From: Halorhodospira halophila SL1
GTDB taxonomy: Bacteria; Pseudomonadota; Gammaproteobacteria; Nitrococcales; Halorhodospiraceae
NCBI RefSeq assembly: GCF_000015585.1
Contig: NC_008789.1
Location: forward strand, 300,001-332,000
Length of the DNA: 32,000 bases
Direction of reading: 5' to 3'
The notes under the pieces were generated by a model, which saw nothing but the letters and a program-made list of their open reading frames with translations, was not told the origin of the DNA and made no database searches. This document shows, piece after piece, positions 5,740 to 20,152 of this stretch. Position 1 is the first letter of the stretch, and each line of letters opens with the position of its first letter. The translations under genes were made by a program, and so were the position numbers.

Positions 5740-6618
5740 TCAACCCTCGACCCCCGGGGCGTCGTCGCGAACCAGCAGCAGGTCCGTGGACAGCTCGCGC
5801 AGCAGCCGCGAGGCGACACTGCCGAGCAGCATATTGGCCCAGCGACCGCGGCCGTGGTTGCCCATCACCACCAGGTCCGCGCCCAGCCCGCCGAGGGCCT
5901 CGAGCAGGACGGTGGCCGGATAGCCAGCGTGCACCTCCAAGTGGACCTCGTCCGGGCTCAGCTCCTCGTCCCGGGCAAACTCCTCCAGTTCCGTGCGCGC
6001 CTCCTCCATCCAGCGCGTCTGCTGCTCCTGAATGTAGCTGTCACCGATGCCGGCAGCGCGCATGCGATCGAGTTCGGCGGTGTCCACCACATAGAGCAGG
6101 TAGAGTTCGGCGGCCGGGAACCAGCGCCGGGCGATCTGCAGCGCAGCCCGCGAGCACTCGGAGAAGTCCACCCCCACGACCACGCGCCGATACGGCGCAT
6201 CGGAATCGCGGCGGACCACCAGCGTCGGCGTCCGGGCGTGGCAGACCAGCTGCTCGGCGGTGGTCCCGAGCATCCAGTCGCGGACGTACTGCCGACCGTG
6301 GGCACCGACCACCAGCAGATCGGCGTCGCCCTCATCGGTGGCGCAGACCACCTCGCCGACCACATCGCCGATCAATACCCGGGGCTTGGCCCGGTGGCCG
6401 GGCGTGCCGGACTGCAGCTGCTGCTCGGCGGCGGCCTGGAAGACGCCTTCCCGGTCCGGCGAGCCACTGAGCGCACGCAACCCGGGCGAGTCGGTCTCGA
6501 TCACGTGGACCGCCTCCAACTGCGCATCGTGGGCCTCGGCCAGCTGCACGGCGCGGCGCCCGGCCCGTCCGGCGCGCTCGGACAGATCGCTGGCGAAGAC
6601 GACTTTCTGCATGCTCAT
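5740..6618 (-). CDS. Universal stress protein, tandem USP domains
   Basis: ORF 5740..6660. ATG at 6618 has an AAGGGGG SD. Two USP-like halves each end in a G-x2-G-x9-G(S/T)-type pattern (VVGAHGRQYVRDWMLGTTAEQL, VMGNHGRGRWANMLLGSVASRL). Confidence 0.8.
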   Translation of the reverse strand: MSMQKVVFASDLSERAGRAGRRAVQLAEAHDAQLEAVHVIETDSPGLRALSGSPDREGVFQAAAEQQLQSGTPGHRAKPRVLIGDVVGEVVCATDEGDADLLVVGAHGRQYVRDWMLGTTAEQLVCHARTPTLVVRRDSDAPYRRVVVGVDFSECSRAALQIARRWFPAAELYLLYVVDTAELDRMRAAGIGDSYIQEQQTRWMEEARTELEEFARDEELSPDEVHLEVHAGYPATVLLEALGGLGADLVVMGNHGRGRWANMLLGSVASRLLRELSTDLLLVRDDAPGVEG

Positions 6619-6791
6619 GGCGGCCCCCTTGATCCCATCAACCGGAAGAGTACGGTGCATCCGGCCCCGGCGCTTGCCCGGGTGCCGGTCTCCTCCTTAG
6701 ATTGTGGCACCATTGCCCGCGAGCGCGGGAGCCTCAGCGTGGCAACACGCCGCGGCCCCGGAGAATCCGATACTCAACAGGAGAGCTACCC

Positions 6792-8525: not shown

Positions 8526-10097
8526 TCAGCGGACCAGGTCGTAGTTGAAGTCGGTGACACCCATGTGCCGGGTCTCCTCGTCGAGCCGGTCCAGCACCTC
8601 GTTGACGATGGTGGTGAGGATGTACATCGCCCCCTCATAGCCCCAGATGCTGTTGCGGTGCAGGTGGTGCCGGTCGAAGATCGGGAAGCCGAGGCGGATC
8701 AGCGGGACCTCGAACTCCTTGCCCTTGTAGAGGGTGTCGCGCTGGATGAACTTGCCGTAGGAGTTGCCGATCATGAAGTCGGGCTTGTCGGTGAAGCACA
8801 GCGAACGCATGTGCCACAGATCCTTGCCGACGTAGACCTGGGCGCTCTCCCCGTAGGGCGTCTGCTCGAGCATGGCGCGCATCGCCTTGCCCCAGCGCTT
8901 GTTGGCGTTGTGGCAGAGCACGTGGCGCGGTTCGGCGCCGAGCTCGGTGAGGAAGCGGGTCATGCCCATGACGAAGTCCGGATCCCCCCACAGGGCGAAG
9001 CGCTTGCCGTGCAGCCACTGGTGGGAGTCGGTCATCATGTCCACCAGCCGCCCGCGCTCCTTCTCCAGGGACGGGGGGATCGGCTTGCCGGTGATCTGCG
9101 AGACCTGCATCAGGAAGTTGTCCGTCGCCTCGAGGCCGATGGGCACCTGCACCTCGGGGCAGTCGTGCTTCCAGGTCTGCTTGACGTACTTCTTGGTCTT
9201 GGTCAGCGCCCAGGGCTGGAGCAGGAGCGTGTCCAGGGCGTTGGGCGCATCGCGGACCTCGTCGATGGGCGTCCCGCCGGCGTACATCCGGTACTCGCCG
9301 TCGGCCGGGGTGTCGAGCACCTCGGTGGGATCACTGAGCACCGAGGCCTCCACGCCCATCTCATCCAGGGCGCGCTTGACCCAGCGGTAGCTACCCAGGT
9401 AGGTCTCGAAGCCGGGCACCAGGTTGAGCTTGCCGTTGCTGCCCGGCTGCTTGTCTTCCATCTCATTGATGGTGAAGTAGCGGATGAGGCCCTCGAACAT
9501 GCCGTCCCAGCCGGTGATGTGGCTGCCGACAAAGCTCGGCGTGTGAGCAAACGGGGTCGGGACCTCCTGGGGCAGATACCCCTCGTCCTTGGCGTTGCCG
9601 ATGAAGGCGTTGAGGTCGTCGCCGATGACCTCGGCCATGCAGGTGGTGGAGACGGCGATCACCTCGGGCTGGTAGATCTGGTAGGCGTTCTGCAGCCCCT
9701 GGTTCATGTTCTTGTGACCGCCGAAGACCGCCGCGTCCTCGGTCATGGAGTCGGAGACGCAGGCCACCGGCTCCTTGAAGTGGCGGTTGAAGTAGGTCCG
9801 GAAGTACGCCACACAGCCCTGGGAGCCGTGGACGTAGGGTAGGGTCTTCTCGAACCCCAGCGAGCAGAGCACCGCGCCCAGGGGCTGGCAAACCTTACCC
9901 GGGTCAACGGTCAGCGCCTCGCGGGAGAAGTTCAGCTCCTGGTACTCCGGCGTGGTCGTCCACTGGAAGGTCTCGTCGATGGTCTGCTGATCGACGCCCT
10001 CCTCGTGCTCCTGCCGCTTGCGGTTGAGAACCTGCTGGTAGTCGTCATCCCGGAACAGCGGGTAGCACGGCTTGATGGCTTCGGTGTCTTCGTTCAT
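8526..10097 (-). CDS. nifK: Mo-nitrogenase MoFe protein beta chain
   Basis: 523 aa with HGSQGCVAYFR and TTCMAEVIGDD P-cluster contexts. Follows nifD. Confidence 0.95.
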   Translation of the reverse strand: MNEDTEAIKPCYPLFRDDDYQQVLNRKRQEHEEGVDQQTIDETFQWTTTPEYQELNFSREALTVDPGKVCQPLGAVLCSLGFEKTLPYVHGSQGCVAYFRTYFNRHFKEPVACVSDSMTEDAAVFGGHKNMNQGLQNAYQIYQPEVIAVSTTCMAEVIGDDLNAFIGNAKDEGYLPQEVPTPFAHTPSFVGSHITGWDGMFEGLIRYFTINEMEDKQPGSNGKLNLVPGFETYLGSYRWVKRALDEMGVEASVLSDPTEVLDTPADGEYRMYAGGTPIDEVRDAPNALDTLLLQPWALTKTKKYVKQTWKHDCPEVQVPIGLEATDNFLMQVSQITGKPIPPSLEKERGRLVDMMTDSHQWLHGKRFALWGDPDFVMGMTRFLTELGAEPRHVLCHNANKRWGKAMRAMLEQTPYGESAQVYVGKDLWHMRSLCFTDKPDFMIGNSYGKFIQRDTLYKGKEFEVPLIRLGFPIFDRHHLHRNSIWGYEGAMYILTTIVNEVLDRLDEETRHMGVTDFNYDLVR

Positions 10098-10148
10098 TGC
10101 GCTTCCTCCAGCTGCGCCGCGACGGATCGACGGCGCCTTGCCTCGATC

Positions 10149-10173
10149 GGGCGGGCCGGCCTCCGGCCCGCCC
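10149..10173 (-). other. Stable intercistronic stem-loop in the nifD-nifK spacer
   Basis: GGGCGGGCC(GG CCT CC)GGCCCGCCC: a 9-bp perfect stem extendable to 11 bp with a 3-nt loop, inside the 90-nt nifD-nifK gap. Confidence 0.5.
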
Positions 10174-10187
10174 CTGGCTGCGAGTGG

Positions 10188-11654
10188 TCAGGCCGCCTTG
10201 GAGGCCGGCTCACCGGTGGCTTTCCACGGCGGAGTCATGCGATCCCAGACCGGGTTGTTCAGGGTCATGTCCATATCCCGGGCGAAGATCGCGAAGCCGT
10301 CGTAGCCGTGGTACGGCCCGGAGTAGTCCCAGGAGTGCATCTGCCGGAACGGCAGACCCATCTTCTGGAAGACGTACTTCTCCTTGATCCCGGCGGCCAC
10401 CAGGTCCGGTCGGGCCCGCTCGATGAAACGCTCCAGCTCGAAGGCGTTGGCGTCGTCGTAGACCAGCGTCCCCTCCTTGAGCTCCGGGTAGGTGCGGTCG
10501 TAGTCGTCGTCGTGGGCGAACTCGTAGCCGGTGCCGATGACCTCCATGCCCAGGTCCTCGTAGGCCCCGATGACGTGGCGCGAGCGCAGCCCGCCGACGT
10601 AGAGCATCACCTTCTTGCCCTCGAGCCGCGGCCGATACTTGGCGATCACCGCCTCCATGGTCGGCTGGTACTTGGCGATGACCTGCTCGGCGTTGGCCTG
10701 GATGGTCTCGTCGAACTGCGCCGCGATCTCGCGTAGGCTCTGGGCGATCCGCGTCGGCCCGAAGAAGTTGAACTCCATCCACGGGATGCCGTGGGTCTTC
10801 TCCATGTGCTCGCAGATGTAGTTCATGGAGCGGTAGCAGTGCAGGAGATTGAGCTGGACCTTGGGCGTGTTCTCCATCTCGGCCAGGGTGCCGTCGCCGG
10901 ACCACTGCGCCACCACGTTCAGGCCCATCTCCTCGAGCAGGATGCGCGAGGCCCAGCAGTCGCCACCGATGTTGTAGTCGCCGACGATGGCCACGTCGTA
11001 GGGCCCGGCCTGGCGGCCGTCGCCCTCGCGGTTCTCCAGGACGTGGTCGCGGATGGTGTCGTTGGCGATGTGGTGGCCGAGGGACTGCGACACGCCGCGG
11101 AACCCCTCGCAGCGCACCGGGATCACCGGCTTACCGAGGCGCTCGGTGGCCTGCCGACCCACGGAGTCGATGTCGTCGCCGATCAGCCCGATGGGGCACT
11201 CCGACTGCACGGTGATGCCCTTGTTCAGCGGGAAGAGCATCTCGATCTCGTCGACGATCTTCTCCAGCTTCGGGTCGCCACCAAAGACGATGTCCCGCTC
11301 CTGGAAGTCTGAGGTGAAGTTGATGGTGCCGAAGGTGTCCACCCCGGTATGGCCGGTGTAGTAGTTGCGCCGGCCGGCCCGGGAGAGCTGACCACAACCC
11401 ACCGGGCCGTGGGAGACGTGCACCATGTCCTTGATCGGCCCCCAGACCACACCCTTGGAGCCGGCGTAGGCGCAGCCGCGCTGGGTCATCACCCCGGGGA
11501 CCGACTTGCGGTTGGAGGTCACGCACTTGCTAGGCTGCTGATCCGGGCCGACGGCGGCCAGGTGCTTGTCCCGTTCCGCGCGGGTGGCCTCGGGGTAGAC
11601 CTCGAGGACCTCCTCGATCACCGCCTGGGCCTCTTCCTGCGTCAAGTTGCTCAT
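10188..11654 (-). CDS. nifD: Mo-nitrogenase MoFe protein alpha chain
   Basis: 488 aa with the CYRSMNY (FeMoco Cys) and [11 protein letters not shown] (FeMoco His) contexts. Confidence 0.95.
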
Positions 11655-11669
11655 GTTGGTGATCCCCCC

Positions 11670-12863
<1,194 letters not shown>

Positions 12864-13334
12864 TCAGTGCTCACTGTAGACGGCGGTCTGCCCGGCCTCG
12901 TTGAAGGCGAGGACCTGGAAGGACTCGGCGGGCTGGCCGGGGATCTCCATCCCCGGCGACCCGATGGGCATACCGGGAACGGAGAGACCGCTGATCGACG
13001 GTTGTTCCTCCAGCATGCGCCGGATATCGGCGGCCGGGACATGGCCCTCCACCGCGTAGCCGTCGACCACGGCCATGTGGCAGGAGACCAGTTCCGGGGT
13101 GATCCCGTGGCTGCGCCGGACCTGGTTGATCTCGCGCTGCTCGGTCACCACCGGCTCGACCTCGAAGCCCTCCTCACGCAGGTGGGTGACCCAGTCCGCG
13201 CAGCATTCACACGTCGGGGTCTTGTAGACGGTAACCACGCCCTCGTCGGTGCCGCCGCCGAGCACGGCGTAGCTGGCCCCACCGACCACCCCGACCGCGC
13301 CCAGAACGCCGGCATAGATCCAGTTGCGTCGCAT
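12864..13334 (-). CDS. DUF411 / CopG-type periplasmic copper-binding protein
   Basis: ATG at 13334 with a GAGGAGGAG SD. N-terminal signal/TM segment, then the DUF411 hallmarks CECCADW ... CHM ... PIGSPGME. Confidence 0.8.
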   Translation of the reverse strand: MRRNWIYAGVLGAVGVVGGASYAVLGGGTDEGVVTVYKTPTCECCADWVTHLREEGFEVEPVVTEQREINQVRRSHGITPELVSCHMAVVDGYAVEGHVPAADIRRMLEEQPSISGLSVPGMPIGSPGMEIPGQPAESFQVLAFNEAGQTAVYSEH

Positions 13335-13386: not shown

Positions 13387-13402
13387 CGCAACCCGGATAC
13401 CA
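13387..13402 (-). promoter_or_regulatory. Possible sigma54-type promoter for the DUF411 gene
   Basis: The - strand reads TGGTATCCGGGTTGCG (GG-N10-GC with TTGC at -12), about 55 nt upstream of ATG 13334. No TGT-N10-ACA within 200 bp upstream. Confidence 0.35.
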
Positions 13403-13427
13403 CCCCCTTCTTGCCGACCGAGGGGGT
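13402..13427 (-). terminator. Hairpin immediately after the SIR2-like gene stop (possible end of the nifB operon)
   Basis: ACCCCCT / AGGGGGT forms a 7-bp stem with a 12-nt loop, starting 1 nt after the stop codon. No clear U-tract. Confidence 0.25.
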
Positions 13428-14309
13428 TCAAGCGCGCTGGGGCGTCTCGCGGGCGGCCCGCTCGGCCAGGTCCCGGGCGCAGGCTTCGATCACGGTCACG
13501 CCGTGGCGAGCCAGGTAGCGCCGCTCCTTCCCGGCGGTGGCCGGAAGCAGGGCCCACCCCTTAGGCTCCCCGGCCTCCTGGGTGATCTCGGTAAAGAGCA
13601 TGCGCTCGGTATCCCGGGTAAAGCGCACCCCCAGGCTCAGGTAGCGCACGCCGCGCCGCCGCTCCTTGAGAAAGCGCGGCAGGGCGAAACCGCCCATCAG
13701 CTCGGTGAGGTAGTCCACAAAATCAGCGTCCGAGGCAACGAAGCTCGGATCGGGCCGCGGCGTGCCCAGCGGCTTGAACAGCACCGGGCCCGAGGGCGTC
13801 GGCGGCGACTCGGCCGCCTCGTCGTGGAGCTCGTGATAGCCGATGCCGTCGTGGCGAAAGACCCGGTAGCGCCGACCGCCGGTGACCCGGGCGATGCCCT
13901 GGACCAGCAAGTGCGGGGTGCCGGCCCAGGCGTCCTGAAGCTGGGTATCCCGATTCAGGTCGACCACCCACGCCGGCCGTTGCTGCGCCAGCCAGTCGAT
14001 CACCGGGGCGCGGGTCCACGGCACCTCACCAAAGCAGGCGCAGAGGAAGCGCTCCAGATAGGGGCGACCGTAATCCTGTTCGATCTTCATCGCCGCCCGG
14101 GAGAACTCGTGCATCAGCACCGGCGACATGGGCCGCCCCTGATTCAGGGCAAGGATCAGCCGCTCGTTGTCGGCGGGCATGGCGTCGCCGGTCTCCGGAT
14201 GTCGGGCCCCCTCCAGGGCCCCCGGCCCGAGCACCGGGACGACACTGCCGTCGGCAAACCCCTGGGTCCACCGCTTCAACCGCTCCTCATCCAACCCCGG
14301 ATGGCTCAT
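13428..14309 (-). CDS. SIR2-like (SIR2_2-type) domain protein of unknown function, last gene of the nifB operon
   Basis: ATG at 14309 with a GGGAGGGGA SD, 23 nt inside the 3' end of nifZ::nifM. 293 aa. Ordered motifs resemble the SIR2_2 fold: VVPVLGPGA, AWVVDLNRDTQL, VLFKPLG...SFVASDADFVDYL, VRYLSLGVRFTRDTERMLF. The assignment is by eye and needs a profile search. Confidence 0.5.
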   Translation of the reverse strand: MSHPGLDEERLKRWTQGFADGSVVPVLGPGALEGARHPETGDAMPADNERLILALNQGRPMSPVLMHEFSRAAMKIEQDYGRPYLERFLCACFGEVPWTRAPVIDWLAQQRPAWVVDLNRDTQLQDAWAGTPHLLVQGIARVTGGRRYRVFRHDGIGYHELHDEAAESPPTPSGPVLFKPLGTPRPDPSFVASDADFVDYLTELMGGFALPRFLKERRRGVRYLSLGVRFTRDTERMLFTEITQEAGEPKGWALLPATAGKERRYLARHGVTVIEACARDLAERAARETPQRA

Positions 14310-15252
14310 GGCTTTCCCCTCCCTGGCCGATCCGCGCCCGATCCCGCTGGACCTGCCGGGCCCGCTGCTCCTGCAGCGCCCCGCGAATCCGTTCCCGAAG
14401 CTCGTCGTCCAGCGGCGCAACGTCCGGCGGGTGAATGGTTTCGCAAAGGAGCACATGCAGGCCCATCGCCGTTTCCACCGGCCCGCGCACCTCACCGGCA
14501 GCCATCTCGAACAGGGCCGCATCCAGCTCCTCGTGCAGTTGCCCCCGGGGCACCCGACCTACCAGCCCGCCGTGCAGGGCACTGGGGCACTCGGAGTGGC
14601 GCTCGGCGGCGGCGGCAAACCCCCGCGGATCGGCGGCCAGCTTTCCAGTCAGCTTCTCGGCCCGCGCCCAGGCCCGCTGCCGTGTGTTCTCCGGGAAATC
14701 GTCGTTGATGGTGATCAGCAGGTGGCGCACGGTGCGCGTCTCGTCGCGCCGAAACCGCTCGGGGTTCTCGTGGTAGAAGCGCTCCACGTCCTCGTCGGTG
14801 ACCGCCGGCACCTCGGCGGCCAGCGCCGCCAGGGCGTGCTCCGGGACCTGCAGGGTGTGCCCCGGAAAGCGCACCTGGTAGGCCGGCCCGGTCGGGGCAT
14901 CGCGCACCACGCGGAGAATCTCGCCGACGGCCCCAGGCTCGGCCACCACCTCGCCCTGGACCGCGAGACGGCGGGTGGGCGTCACACGGTCACGACACTC
15001 GAAGCGGGTCTCCACCCAGTGGCTGGCTGCATCCATGAGCTCCTCCTCGCGACAACCGACCATGCGATCCTGATCCAGGAAGAAGACGGTGTAGATGATC
15101 TGATCCTGCAGGAACGTCCCGACATCCCGGACGTAACCCACACTCCCCCGGGGGACCAGCAACTCACCCCGGGCCACGCCGGGGTAAGTGCCGTCGTTGC
15201 GGATGTTGCGGGTCACCCGCACCGCCGCGCCGATCCTGAACTGCGGGAGCAT
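14287..15252 (-). CDS. nifM: NifZ-NifM fusion protein (full NifZ + parvulin-type PPIase part of NifM)
   Basis: Single uninterrupted 321-aa ORF. The N-terminal roughly 145 aa is NifZ-like (FRIGAAVRVTRNIRNDGTYPG...GSVGYVRDVGTFLQDQIIYTVFF...VGCREEEL, plus a second NifZ C-terminal module). The C-terminal roughly 175 aa is NifM/parvulin-like (RHLLITINDDFPENT...HSECPSALHGGLVG...G.HVLLCE). ATGA overlap with the nifW stop. Confidence 0.8.
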   Translation of the reverse strand: MLPQFRIGAAVRVTRNIRNDGTYPGVARGELLVPRGSVGYVRDVGTFLQDQIIYTVFFLDQDRMVGCREEELMDAASHWVETRFECRDRVTPTRRLAVQGEVVAEPGAVGEILRVVRDAPTGPAYQVRFPGHTLQVPEHALAALAAEVPAVTDEDVERFYHENPERFRRDETRTVRHLLITINDDFPENTRQRAWARAEKLTGKLAADPRGFAAAAERHSECPSALHGGLVGRVPRGQLHEELDAALFEMAAGEVRGPVETAMGLHVLLCETIHPPDVAPLDDELRERIRGALQEQRARQVQRDRARIGQGGESHEPSGVG

Positions 15253-16744: not shown

Positions 16745-17337
16745 CACGCCTCCGGCCCGAAACATTCGGAGAAATCGCTGCAGGCGTCACAGGAGGGCGC
16801 CCGGCAGGTGTAGATCCCGGTCTCCTCGCAGAGCCGCTTATAGAGAAACTTCTTCCACTTCATGTCGCGGTCGTTCAAGGCACACAGCGCGGGGAAACCC
16901 GCCTGCATGAGCCGGGTCAGCTCCTTGCGCGAGCGCAACCCCAGGTCCTGCCACAGGTGGTCGCGCCCCAGGCAGCCAGCGGCGACGATCTGCGCCAGCC
17001 AGCGCTCGGAGCGATCGGCACCGCGCCGGTAGCGCAGCAGCAGATCGGCCACATCGGCCTGCTCGTCGGCCAGCGGCCGGGCGAGTGTTGGCGGATCGGG
17101 GAACGGCGTCACCGCGCCAACACCGGGGAAGTGGCGGGCCATCATGGCCACGTAGTCACCGGGCTCGAGCCCCATCCAGGCCGGCAGGACGCTCTCGCCG
17201 CTGAGCCAGGCCGCTACCAGCTGCGCCAGCGGCTGATCGTTGGGTAGACCGGTGGCCTCGGCGAGCATGCCGCCGCAGGTGTGCGGCCAGAAGACCCGGC
17301 CCACGGGGGCCGTCGGCGTTGTCTCAGTGCCGTTCAT
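16744..17337 (-). CDS. nifQ: Molybdenum-processing protein NifQ
   Basis: 197 aa. [29 protein letters not shown] and the C-terminal Cx4Cx2Cx5C ([15 protein letters not shown]). ATGA overlap with the nifB stop. Confidence 0.88.
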
Positions 17338-18389
17338 GGGGTGCCCTCCTCTTCCCGCAGCTGCTCATCCAGGGCCTGCCAGGCCGCCTCCTGGCGGACG
17401 CGCACCGCCTCCGGATCCAGGGACAGCCCGGCCACGCGGGCGCGGCTGAACTCCGCGCCGCGGTCCTCGCCGAGCATCCCGGCGGCATCAGCGCGGCACT
17501 GCTGGCAGTGGCTCATCACCGCAATATCGTTGGCGCAGGCGGCGCGCAGCCCGAGCAGTTCCGCGTCGGTGGGGCCGCGCTGGCCGATCTGGCCGAAGTG
17601 GGTGCCGTGACTCGGATCGGAGATCAACGGCATGACGTTGTGCAGGAACGCCCCGCGCTGCCGGACCACCCGCGACACGGCGGGCAGGTGCTGGTGATTG
17701 ATCCCCGGGATAGCCACCGAGTTGACCTTCACCAGCACCCCCCGCTCGGCCAGGGCCTCGATCCCGGCGAGCTGGCGCTGGAGCAGGATCCGGGCCGCCT
17801 CCAGGCCGCGCCGCCGGCGGTGCTCGAAGAGGATCGACGGGTGGATCTGCGCACCGATCTCCGGGTCGATGGCGTTGACCGTGACGGTGACATGCTCCAC
17901 ATCCAGGGCCACCAGATCGTCGACGTAGTCGGGCAGCGCCAGGCCGTTGGTGGACAGGCACAGGCGCAGCTGCGGGGCGACCTCGCGGATGCGCTCGAAG
18001 GTCTCGAAGGTACGCCGCGGGTTGGCCAGGGCGTCGCCGGGGCCGGCGATGCCCACCACCGACAGCTGCGGGATCTCCGCGGCCACCGCCAGGGTCTTGG
18101 CCACCGCCTCCTCGGGGGTGAGGACCTCGGAGACCACCCCGGGGCGGGACTCGTTGGCGCAGTCGTACTTGCGGTTACAGTAGTTGCACGAGAGGTTGCA
18201 ACCCGGGGCGACGGCCACGTGCAGCCGCGCAAAGTGGTGGTGGGCGCGCTCGGAGTAGCAGGGGTGGTCCCGGACCTTGGCGCGCAGCGCCTCGGGCAGG
18301 TGCTCGAGCCCGTCGCCGGGTGCCCCCGCGCCACCGACACCGGGACACCCGGCTTCCGGGTCGCAGATGGTGGAGCCGCTTGCGTCCAT
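17334..18389 (-). CDS. nifB: Radical-SAM FeMo-cofactor (NifB-co) synthase NifB, short form without NifX-like domain
   Basis: ATG at 18389 with a GGAGGGAGAG SD. HPCYSERAHHHFARLHVAVAPGCNLSCNYCNRKYDC (CxxxCxxC), HCQQCRADAAG. Only about 45 aa follow the CRADA motif before the stop. Confidence 0.9.
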   Translation of the reverse strand: MDASGSTICDPEAGCPGVGGAGAPGDGLEHLPEALRAKVRDHPCYSERAHHHFARLHVAVAPGCNLSCNYCNRKYDCANESRPGVVSEVLTPEEAVAKTLAVAAEIPQLSVVGIAGPGDALANPRRTFETFERIREVAPQLRLCLSTNGLALPDYVDDLVALDVEHVTVTVNAIDPEIGAQIHPSILFEHRRRRGLEAARILLQRQLAGIEALAERGVLVKVNSVAIPGINHQHLPAVSRVVRQRGAFLHNVMPLISDPSHGTHFGQIGQRGPTDAELLGLRAACANDIAVMSHCQQCRADAAGMLGEDRGAEFSRARVAGLSLDPEAVRVRQEAAWQALDEQLREEEGTP

Positions 18390-18445
18390 TGTCTCTCCCT
18401 CCGTCGGGACCGGAGCCGGGCTCCGGTCGGGCCTGCCCGTGTCAA

Positions 18446-18461
18446 TGCAACCCTCATGCCG
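18446..18461 (-). promoter_or_regulatory. sigma54 (-24/-12) promoter of the nifB operon
   Basis: The - strand reads CGGCATGAGGGTTGCA with correct GG-N10-GC spacing. Predicted 5'UTR is about 46 nt. Confidence 0.7.
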
Positions 18462-18522
18462 GATCTGCGAATCGGCTAACCGCCCGTTTCGCCGGTGCCC
18501 CGGTGCCGCTGCGTGCCGGATG

Positions 18523-18538
18523 TGTCGCAAACCCCACA
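18523..18538. promoter_or_regulatory. NifA-type UAS upstream of nifB
   Basis: TGTCGCAAACCCCACA is a perfect TGT-N10-ACA at about -96. It lies between the nifA stop and the nifB promoter. Confidence 0.6.
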
Positions 18539-18574
18539 GCCGCATGTCGTTTCCGCCACGCTTCGGCCCGCCGC

Positions 18575-20152
<1,578 letters not shown>

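Follow-up and report, generated by a model that had tools for sequence, protein, structure and literature searches.

A probable pnfA orthologue overlaps nifZ::nifM in Halorhodospira halophila

We analysed 32,000 nucleotides (nt) of Halorhodospira halophila SL1 DNA (contig NC_008789.1, positions 300,001–332,000; hereafter the window, numbered from its first nucleotide), concentrating on an open reading frame (ORF) in its nitrogen fixation (nif) region that a first-pass annotation, made from the sequence alone, had described as a SIR2-like gene at the end of the nifB operon. The ORF, which we assign to the pnfA family, occupies positions 13,428–14,309 on the minus strand and, as the sequence and its translation confirmed, encodes 293 amino acids (aa) from an ATG at 14,309–14,307. 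A Shine–Dalgarno sequence, GGGAGGGGA (14,315–14,323, minus strand), places its GGAGG core 8 nt 5' of this ATG, within the 3' end of the gene directly upstream, a 321-aa nifZ::nifM fusion (14,287–15,252, minus strand). The two genes overlap by 23 nt (14,287–14,309, minus strand), which suggests translational coupling. Start codon, Shine–Dalgarno sequence and overlap were all borne out as first described. The ATG at 14,309 is further supported by homologues of ~285 aa, which align from residues 1–10 of the window protein.

The predicted protein is identical to H. halophila SL1 ABM61070.1/WP_011813093.1, for which RefSeq already gives the name ‘SIR2 family protein’. It also belongs to a family with a published mutant phenotype. 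Yan et al. (2010, BMC Genomics 11:11; PMC2820453) gave the name pnfA to PST1325 of Pseudomonas stutzeri A1501, which encodes a 31.7-kDa product reported in diazotrophs only. The P. stutzeri gene is divergent from nifHDK and has a −24/−12 promoter and a TGT-N10-ACA upstream activator sequence (UAS), its expression depending on NifA and RpoN. Homologues were listed from A. vinelandii (72% identity), Azoarcus BH72 (55%), Dechloromonas (54%) and H. halophila SL1 (49%), together with a second subfamily of ~20% identity. PST_1325 is now annotated ‘SIR2 family protein’ and adjoins nifH. By the 49% homologue listing and the common annotation, the window ORF is probably the PST1325 orthologue. The first-pass annotation had suggested that the protein might be undescribed; it is instead a correctly annotated member of an already described family, and therefore not new as a discovery.

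In the same report, a non-polar pnfA mutant tested at 0.5% O2 showed unchanged nifH mRNA, while nitrogenase activity fell to 23%. Activity was wild-type-like under strict anaerobiosis, the loss was severe under nitrate respiration, and the mutant was complemented in trans. Full nitrogenase activity thus requires pnfA at a post-transcriptional level in P. stutzeri, the one species for which this has been demonstrated. A role in electron transfer or oxygen protection was suggested, and the available text makes no mention of a SIR2 fold (PMC2820453). Our literature search found no later study of pnfA. Family members have been noted elsewhere: expression of Zymomonas mobilis ZMO1821 rises when N2 is being fixed, and a role as a deacetylase has been speculated on; the Rcc03262 protein of R. 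capsulatus is absent from a nifA1/nifA2 mutant, meaning that its accumulation is NifA-dependent; Azoarcus azo0536, which follows draT directly and so occupies the pnfA position, shows 60-fold induction under N2 fixation, in contrast to draT, which is not induced; and the gene is mentioned in passing for Rhodovulum, Thalassolituus (23 genomes) and Paenirhizobium. NafH of A. vinelandii was considered as the same protein and rejected, nafH being a different gene in a nafH-nifW-nifZ unit. Avin_01360 of A. vinelandii is labelled only ‘conserved hypothetical’.

The window gene has no promoter of its own

Upstream of the window pnfA, on the same strand, lie nifW, nifV, nifQ, nifB and nifA, with the genes from nifB to pnfA tightly packed or overlapping; downstream lie a DUF411 gene and then nifH, nifD and nifK. 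The first-pass annotation had seen no room for a promoter directly before pnfA, and our scans of the upstream sequence inside nifM agreed, returning no sigma70-like site, no sigma54-type −24/−12 element and no NifA UAS. Within the nifB-Q-V-W-ZM-pnfA string, the one feature 5' of pnfA that resembles a promoter is a sigma54-type −24/−12 element before nifB, CGGCATGAGGGTTGCA (18,446–18,461, minus strand), accompanied by a TGT-N10-ACA UAS from 18,538. The nifB-type site has a counterpart at 5,859 in L081, one of three loci (L081–L083) from 85%-identical relatives. From this arrangement, the window pnfA very probably rides on the nifB-operon transcript.

The 3' side of the gene did not bear out the initial description. 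A GC-rich inverted repeat (ACCCCCT...AGGGGGT; 13,402–13,427, minus strand; stem 13,421–13,427 paired with 13,402–13,408) follows the TGA stop and had been noted as a hairpin, but its stability does not exceed that of shuffled sequence (z = −0.43), and it has no T-run and is not recognisable as a terminator; a terminator scan of the site was likewise empty. The claim that pnfA is the terminal cistron is also unproven, because a DUF411 gene that had been missed starts only 93 nt downstream on the same strand. This gene (12,864–13,334, minus strand; Pfam PF04214, 5e-26) lies between pnfA and nifH and encodes 156 aa with a hydrophobic N-terminal stretch resembling a signal peptide. Between the pnfA stop and the DUF411 start, the promoter scan reported a sigma54-like element with one mismatch and no UAS, TGGTATCCGGGTTGCG (13,387–13,402, minus strand); nifH has a sigma54 promoter, TGGCATGGCGGTTGCA (12,605–12,620, minus strand), with a UAS from 12,825.

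Relatives of pnfA are nif-linked and usually carry a NifA-type promoter

In the GTDB collection, a relative of the window protein occurs in at least 525 species. Locus counts given here cover the 80 best loci, in which neighbouring genes were identified by tblastn with annotated proteins. Surveying orthologues for nif linkage, as the first-pass annotation had proposed, we found nif, dra, rnf or fix-type genes within 10 kb in 73 of the 80 loci, a few having only an Rnf or hemerythrin match. In the common order, nifT-K-D-H are transcribed away from a series that reads draT (where present), pnfA and a small Cys-rich ORF (where present); further on, and facing this series, runs nifA, nifB, nifQ and draG, of which draG, the last in the direction of transcription, is nearest to pnfA. 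A sigma54 −24/−12 element lies 45–105 nt upstream of pnfA in 75 of the 80 loci, compared with 12 of 80 on the control strand, and a NifA UAS precedes the gene in 61. Among the 70 loci with enough flanking sequence, draT is upstream on the pnfA strand in 39, and within 500 nt in 19 of these. Even so, pnfA has its own sigma54 promoter in 22 of 23 draT-adjacent loci, in agreement with the 60-fold induction of Azoarcus azo0536 without induction of draT. A gene of the second clade, on R. etli plasmid p42d, ends a nifA-nifB-fdxN-nifZ-nifT series.

Set against this background, the window gene is alike to P. stutzeri pnfA in the size of its product (293 aa versus 31.7 kDa), in its restriction to diazotrophs, in nifHDK linkage and in its ‘SIR2 family protein’ annotation. 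In P. stutzeri and most genomes, however, pnfA is transcribed away from nifH under a NifA/sigma54 promoter of its own, whereas the window gene is co-directional with nifH, lacks a promoter of its own, overlaps nifZ::nifM by 23 nt and is separated from nifH by the DUF411 gene. The L081–L083 relatives share most of this arrangement: pnfA is co-directional with nifHDK and follows nifW-nifZ::nifM with an identical 23-nt overlap. The simplest reading of these sequences is that the Halorhodospira lineage swapped pnfA's own NifA promoter for fusion into the nifB operon, which would also be NifA-controlled. The near-universal sigma54 promoter, the frequent draT adjacency and the Halorhodospira operon fusion are new here.

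The recurrent neighbourhood of pnfA and draT raises the question of whether the two act together. In many beta- and gammaproteobacteria PnfA and DraT/DraG share a genomic location, and they are alike in having an NAD-related fold and in affecting nitrogenase activity post-translationally, yet their folds are unrelated, DraT turns nitrogenase off while loss of PnfA lowers activity, and PnfA occurs without DraT or DraG. One reading is that PnfA senses NAD+, NADH or ADP-ribose and tunes DraT/DraG, for example by holding DraT off or shielding Arg101 of NifH, with a residual role where draT is missing. The common draT–pnfA order, the convergent draG ending the nifB–nifQ operon in at least 25 of 64 loci, an earlier proposal that Azoarcus draT, azo0536 and dcrH1 form one polycistronic mRNA, and the retention of the pocket Asn and Asp described below would all fit such a sensor. 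We nevertheless consider it quite unlikely: pnfA keeps its own promoter even beside draT, azo0536 responds to N2 fixation when draT does not, the gene also occurs on rhizobial symbiosis plasmids after nifZ-nifT, and in P. stutzeri, which has neither DraT nor DraG, pnfA is present and, by the published phenotype, important. The window NifH carries the Arg-containing GCAGRG, as first noted. Also against the sensor, tblastn with DraT and DraG queries from three genomes found neither protein in the 32 kb, upholding the earlier statement, and no DraT or DraG family came up when ten further ORFs, most of them close to the two ends of the window, were scanned with Pfam.

Several further features recur around pnfA. 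In at least 25 of 64 loci the draG gene (ADP_ribosyl_GH) is split from draT and closes the nifB...nifQ operon, facing pnfA, instead of forming a draTG operon; examples of this placement are L085 12,577–13,491, L086 11,155–12,069 and L087 10,862–11,809. In 16 of the 80 loci (for example, L085 10,951–11,178 and L086 10,837–11,061), pnfA is followed on its own strand, after 50–450 nt, by a conserved Cys-rich ORF of ~75 aa (CxxxxxxxxCxxCGR, weak DUF1289 match), for which no match was found in the window. Hemerythrin-like genes recur beside pnfA (L039, L062; Azoarcus azo0535, which is dcrH1). Azoarcus dcrH1 is co-induced 64-fold with azo0536, which may point to a link with O2 or NO. A Sulfuritalea metagenome-assembled genome (L052) carries two pnfA-like copies on the same strand (10,001–10,825 and 14,180–14,986), 4 kb apart.

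PnfA has a predicted SIR2_2 fold and a degenerate active site

The first-pass annotation had recognized SIR2-type motifs and proposed profile and structure searches, both of which pointed to the same fold. Pfam reported SIR2_2 (PF13289) for residues 150–274 at 33.2 bits, above the gathering cut-off of 24.5, as its only match at E ≤ 1, with no match to the classical SIR2 family (PF02146). An AlphaFold model built on 30 homologues had a pLDDT (predicted local distance difference test) of 92.1 and a pTM (predicted template modelling score) of 0.91, and its best Foldseek matches in the PDB were the SIR2 domains of DSR2, KomC and Avs5 (E ~1e-9, TM scores 0.60–0.66). NCBIfam has no model for the protein, and neither a Zn-ribbon/Cys4 module in the protein nor a conserved Cys motif in the homologue alignment was found. 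The window protein is thus modelled as a SIR2_2-type Rossmann fold, a single domain with no attached sensor.

Since no PDB sequence matched the family profile at E ≤ 1, residue mapping was taken from bridging homologues. When 1.84 billion cluster representatives were searched exhaustively with a profile, only 463 relatives were returned at E ≤ 1e-3, among them canonical SIR2_2 proteins (P0260 and P0265, scoring 94 and 88 bits to PF13289) that bridge to the family. Alignment of the window protein to a bona fide SIR2_2 protein by hhalign gave a probability of 98.6 over 275 columns, and MAFFT and hhalign agreed on the motif mapping. The four motifs picked out by eye, in the order given, are homologous to those of SIR2_2 proteins. 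FLGAGAS corresponds to VLGPGAL, a G28-P-G-A-L32 loop in which Leu32 replaces Ser; TTNYD corresponds to DLNRD, retaining Asn119 and Asp121 of TxNxD; and YKLHGS corresponds to FKPLGT, with Leu181 in place of the catalytic His. Given the probability of this alignment, the His-to-Leu181 replacement, which had also been spotted initially, is real. In relatives this His is catalytic, as illustrated by PDB entries of DSR2 H171A and KomC H146N with NAD+ or NAD fragments bound. By its residues, then, the window protein has a degenerate SIR2 active site, the canonical His and Ser being gone and Asn119 and Asp121 kept, for which binding only or non-canonical chemistry appears to be the best reading, as the first-pass annotation had suggested.

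The identity of the closest structural neighbours brings up the possibility that the gene is an anti-phage defence SIR2 of the ThsA or DSR type, present in the nif region by chance. The SIR2_2 domains of ThsA, DSR2, KomC and Avs5 share with the window protein a Rossmann-type fold without Zn-ribbon and the order of motifs. These defence NADases, however, need both Asn and His and carry sensor or effector partner domains, whereas the window protein lacks the His and the Ser, consists of one 293-aa domain with no sensor and has no match at E ≤ 1 among the PADLOC defence models. The context, with nif linkage in 73 of 80 genomes and the NifA/sigma54 promoter, effectively refutes the defence-system reading, and we rejected it. 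Sirtuins (CobB/Sir2, PF02146) and the ADP-ribosylating SirTM share a distantly related NAD+-binding fold, but the window protein differs from them in having no PF02146 match, no Cys4 zinc module and no catalytic His.

Two PnfA clades have lost different catalytic residues

Two sets of 119 sequences were compared, one from the main clade, to which the window protein belongs, and one of proteins related to the R. etli plasmid homologue (the rhizobial clade). The Asn of TxNxD is present in 119/119 main-clade sequences and replaced by Trp in 119/119 of the rhizobial clade. Conversely, the His of KxHG is kept in 118 of the 119 rhizobial sequences, while the main clade has Met (80), Leu (34), Thr (3) or His (2) at this position. 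Both clades have largely lost the Ser of GAGxS: it is Leu in 116/119 main-clade sequences, and the residue is non-polar in 118/119 rhizobial ones (Leu in 97/119). When the second clade is sampled more widely, Ile, Leu, Phe or Tyr is also seen where the His would stand. As judged from these alignments, the loss of the Asn and His catalytic residues is reciprocal between the two clades, a finding that is new here. It follows that no catalytic pair is common to the whole nif-linked family, and since the clades nevertheless share a nif context, their common function is most likely non-catalytic.

The rhizobial and Rhodobacter gene (R. etli p42d RHE_RS30545; R. capsulatus Rcc03262) is like the window gene in fold, length and nif linkage. 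It is NifA-dependent and, as in the window, lies co-directionally at the end of a nif operon containing nifZ. Its product is ~30% identical to the window protein and has the opposite residue pattern, keeping the KxHG His and carrying Trp for Asn. ZMO1821 of Z. mobilis probably falls in this group, and the group is likely to be the ‘20% identity’ second subfamily of Yan et al. PGAP and UniRef name rhizobial-clade members (P0287–P0299 and others) ‘SIR2 family NAD-dependent protein deacylase’; this is probably an over-annotation, because all 119 sampled members have Trp for the catalytic Asn and are without the GAGxS Ser. Likewise, the residues do not back the role as a deacetylase that papers on Z. 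mobilis and Thalassolituus put forward.

One further residue separates the clades. His133 (codon ~13,911–13,913) is invariant in 119/119 main-clade sequences and is Arg in the clade retaining the canonical His; in the AlphaFold model it stands at the N-terminal start of a beta-strand. It could be a relocated functional His or a coincidence.

These residues bear on whether PnfA might still consume NAD+, acting as a non-canonical ADP-ribosyltransferase, deacylase or NADase that covalently modifies NifH or another nif protein. The SIR2 fold, the invariant Asn119 and Asp121 with His133 as a possible substitute for the lost His, the same-strand draT upstream in 39/70 loci, the naming of rhizobial members by PGAP and the on/off switching of nitrogenase in P. 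stutzeri without DraT or DraG can each be cited in favour of such an enzyme. Yet the main clade lacks the canonical His, the rhizobial clade lacks the Asn, and neither retains the GAGxS Ser; the model puts His133 at a strand start, presumably away from the nucleotide site; there is neither a Zn-ribbon nor a PF02146 match; and the published loss of activity on pnfA disruption is opposite to what removal of an inhibitory modifier would cause. We consider an NAD+-consuming PnfA unlikely. An NAD-dependent modifier had been the main idea of the first-pass annotation; a DraT-like one that inhibits nitrogenase is similarly unlikely because loss of pnfA in P. stutzeri lowers rather than raises nitrogenase activity; each clade has, moreover, lost one essential SIR2 residue.

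A proposed role for PnfA as a non-catalytic factor sustaining nitrogenase activity

Taken as a whole, the evidence is best explained if the window gene is a PnfA orthologue that lost its promoter in Halorhodospira and encodes a non-catalytic or non-canonical factor sustaining nitrogenase, a reading to which we give a probability of roughly 0.6. Under this proposal, Halorhodospira pnfA would be expressed from the nifB promoter as a cistron translationally coupled to nifZ::nifM, and PnfA would act after transcription. As an accessory factor it would have no catalytic activity, or at most a non-canonical one, and would carry out neither protein deacylation nor NAD+ hydrolysis. Its remnant dinucleotide pocket and a strongly conserved helical insert (residues 45–100) probably bind a nucleotide-type ligand, a partner from the nitrogenase pathway, or both. 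The outcome would be that nitrogenase is kept active in respiring or redox-stressed cells.

The position of pnfA directly after nifW-nifZ::nifM in the window, and behind nifZ-nifT in R. etli, R. capsulatus and Rhodovulum, would also suit a chaperone that matures or assembles the Fe protein or MoFe protein alongside NifW, NifZ, NifM and NifT, the SIR2 fold being only a scaffold, and a fall in activity with no change in nifH mRNA, as described for the P. stutzeri mutant, would likewise fit. In A. vinelandii, however, whose homologue is the 72%-identical one, immature MoFe protein was reported to co-purify only with NafH, NifW, NifZ, NifY and NafY, and the defect in P. stutzeri was reported to be absent under strict anaerobiosis, which is unusual for an assembly factor. 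We hold an assembly role to be highly doubtful. The lack of a PnfA homologue among the proteins reported as co-purified with immature MoFe protein, together with the condition-dependent defect, indicates that the target of the accessory factor proposed here is probably on the Fe-protein or electron-supply side.

A narrower version is that PnfA is a pseudo-sirtuin whose SIR2 fold has abandoned catalysis, a different half of the Asn/His pair having been lost in each clade; it would bind NAD(H) or ADP-ribose and couple cellular redox or NAD status to Fe-protein function, working beside the ADP-ribosylation switch where draT is present. We offer this tentatively and regard it as unlikely; where draT is missing, as in P. 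stutzeri, such a regulator might account for the so far unexplained control of nitrogenase activity that does not depend on DraT.

Several points weigh against a non-catalytic PnfA that sustains nitrogenase in respiring cells. The invariance of Asn119-Arg120-Asp121 and His133 in the main clade could reflect a pocket that still works, its catalytic residue having moved elsewhere. Because H. halophila grows as an anaerobic phototroph, a role tied to respiration may not transfer to it. Co-transcription of nifB–nifM with pnfA is read from sequence alone, and orthology to PST1325 is taken from the statement in Yan et al. and the annotation. In that report, the pnfA mutant was a plasmid integration and its complementation was given as ‘data not shown’ (PMC2820453).

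Few widely conserved NifA-regulon proteins combine, as PnfA does, a clear activity phenotype with no known biochemistry, and PnfA relatives range across proteobacteria, including rhizobial symbiosis plasmids, Azotobacter, Pseudomonas and Azoarcus. The window finding is in itself ordinary, comprising a known family, a correct annotation and a lineage-specific operon arrangement. The residue losses, promoter, draT adjacency and operon fusion added here sharpen the mechanistic question about PnfA, and the residue census argues against the name ‘NAD-dependent protein deacylase’, which databases are now spreading, and against the deacetylation speculated on in two recent papers. There is also a practical side, in that nif clusters moved into new hosts usually omit pnfA, the loss of which cost P. 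stutzeri 77% of its activity microaerobically.

Other features of the Halorhodospira nif region

The nifZ::nifM product combines a Pfam NifZ domain (residues 3–73, 1e-34) with a PPIC Rotamase domain (residues 177–271, 2e-20) and matches the nifM model TIGR02933 partially. The fusion is kept as a single ORF in Halorhodospira relatives (L081 9,058–10,023). The pairing of pnfA with a DUF411 gene recurs in a second read assembly, L088; L081–L083 have no DUF411 gene, and in L081 nifH directly follows pnfA. NifB of the window (17,334–18,578, minus strand) matches only positions 3–290 of the 441-position TIGR01290 model, and NifB of L081 (5,930–6,976) has 348 aa and a Radical_SAM domain only. Both are thus without the C-terminal NifX-like domain that NifB carries in the other proteobacteria looked at here, as in L085 (495 aa, Nitro_FeMo-Co). 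A tandem universal stress protein (Usp) gene lies at 5,740–6,660 on the minus strand, inside the nif region between its nifEN and nifK sides.

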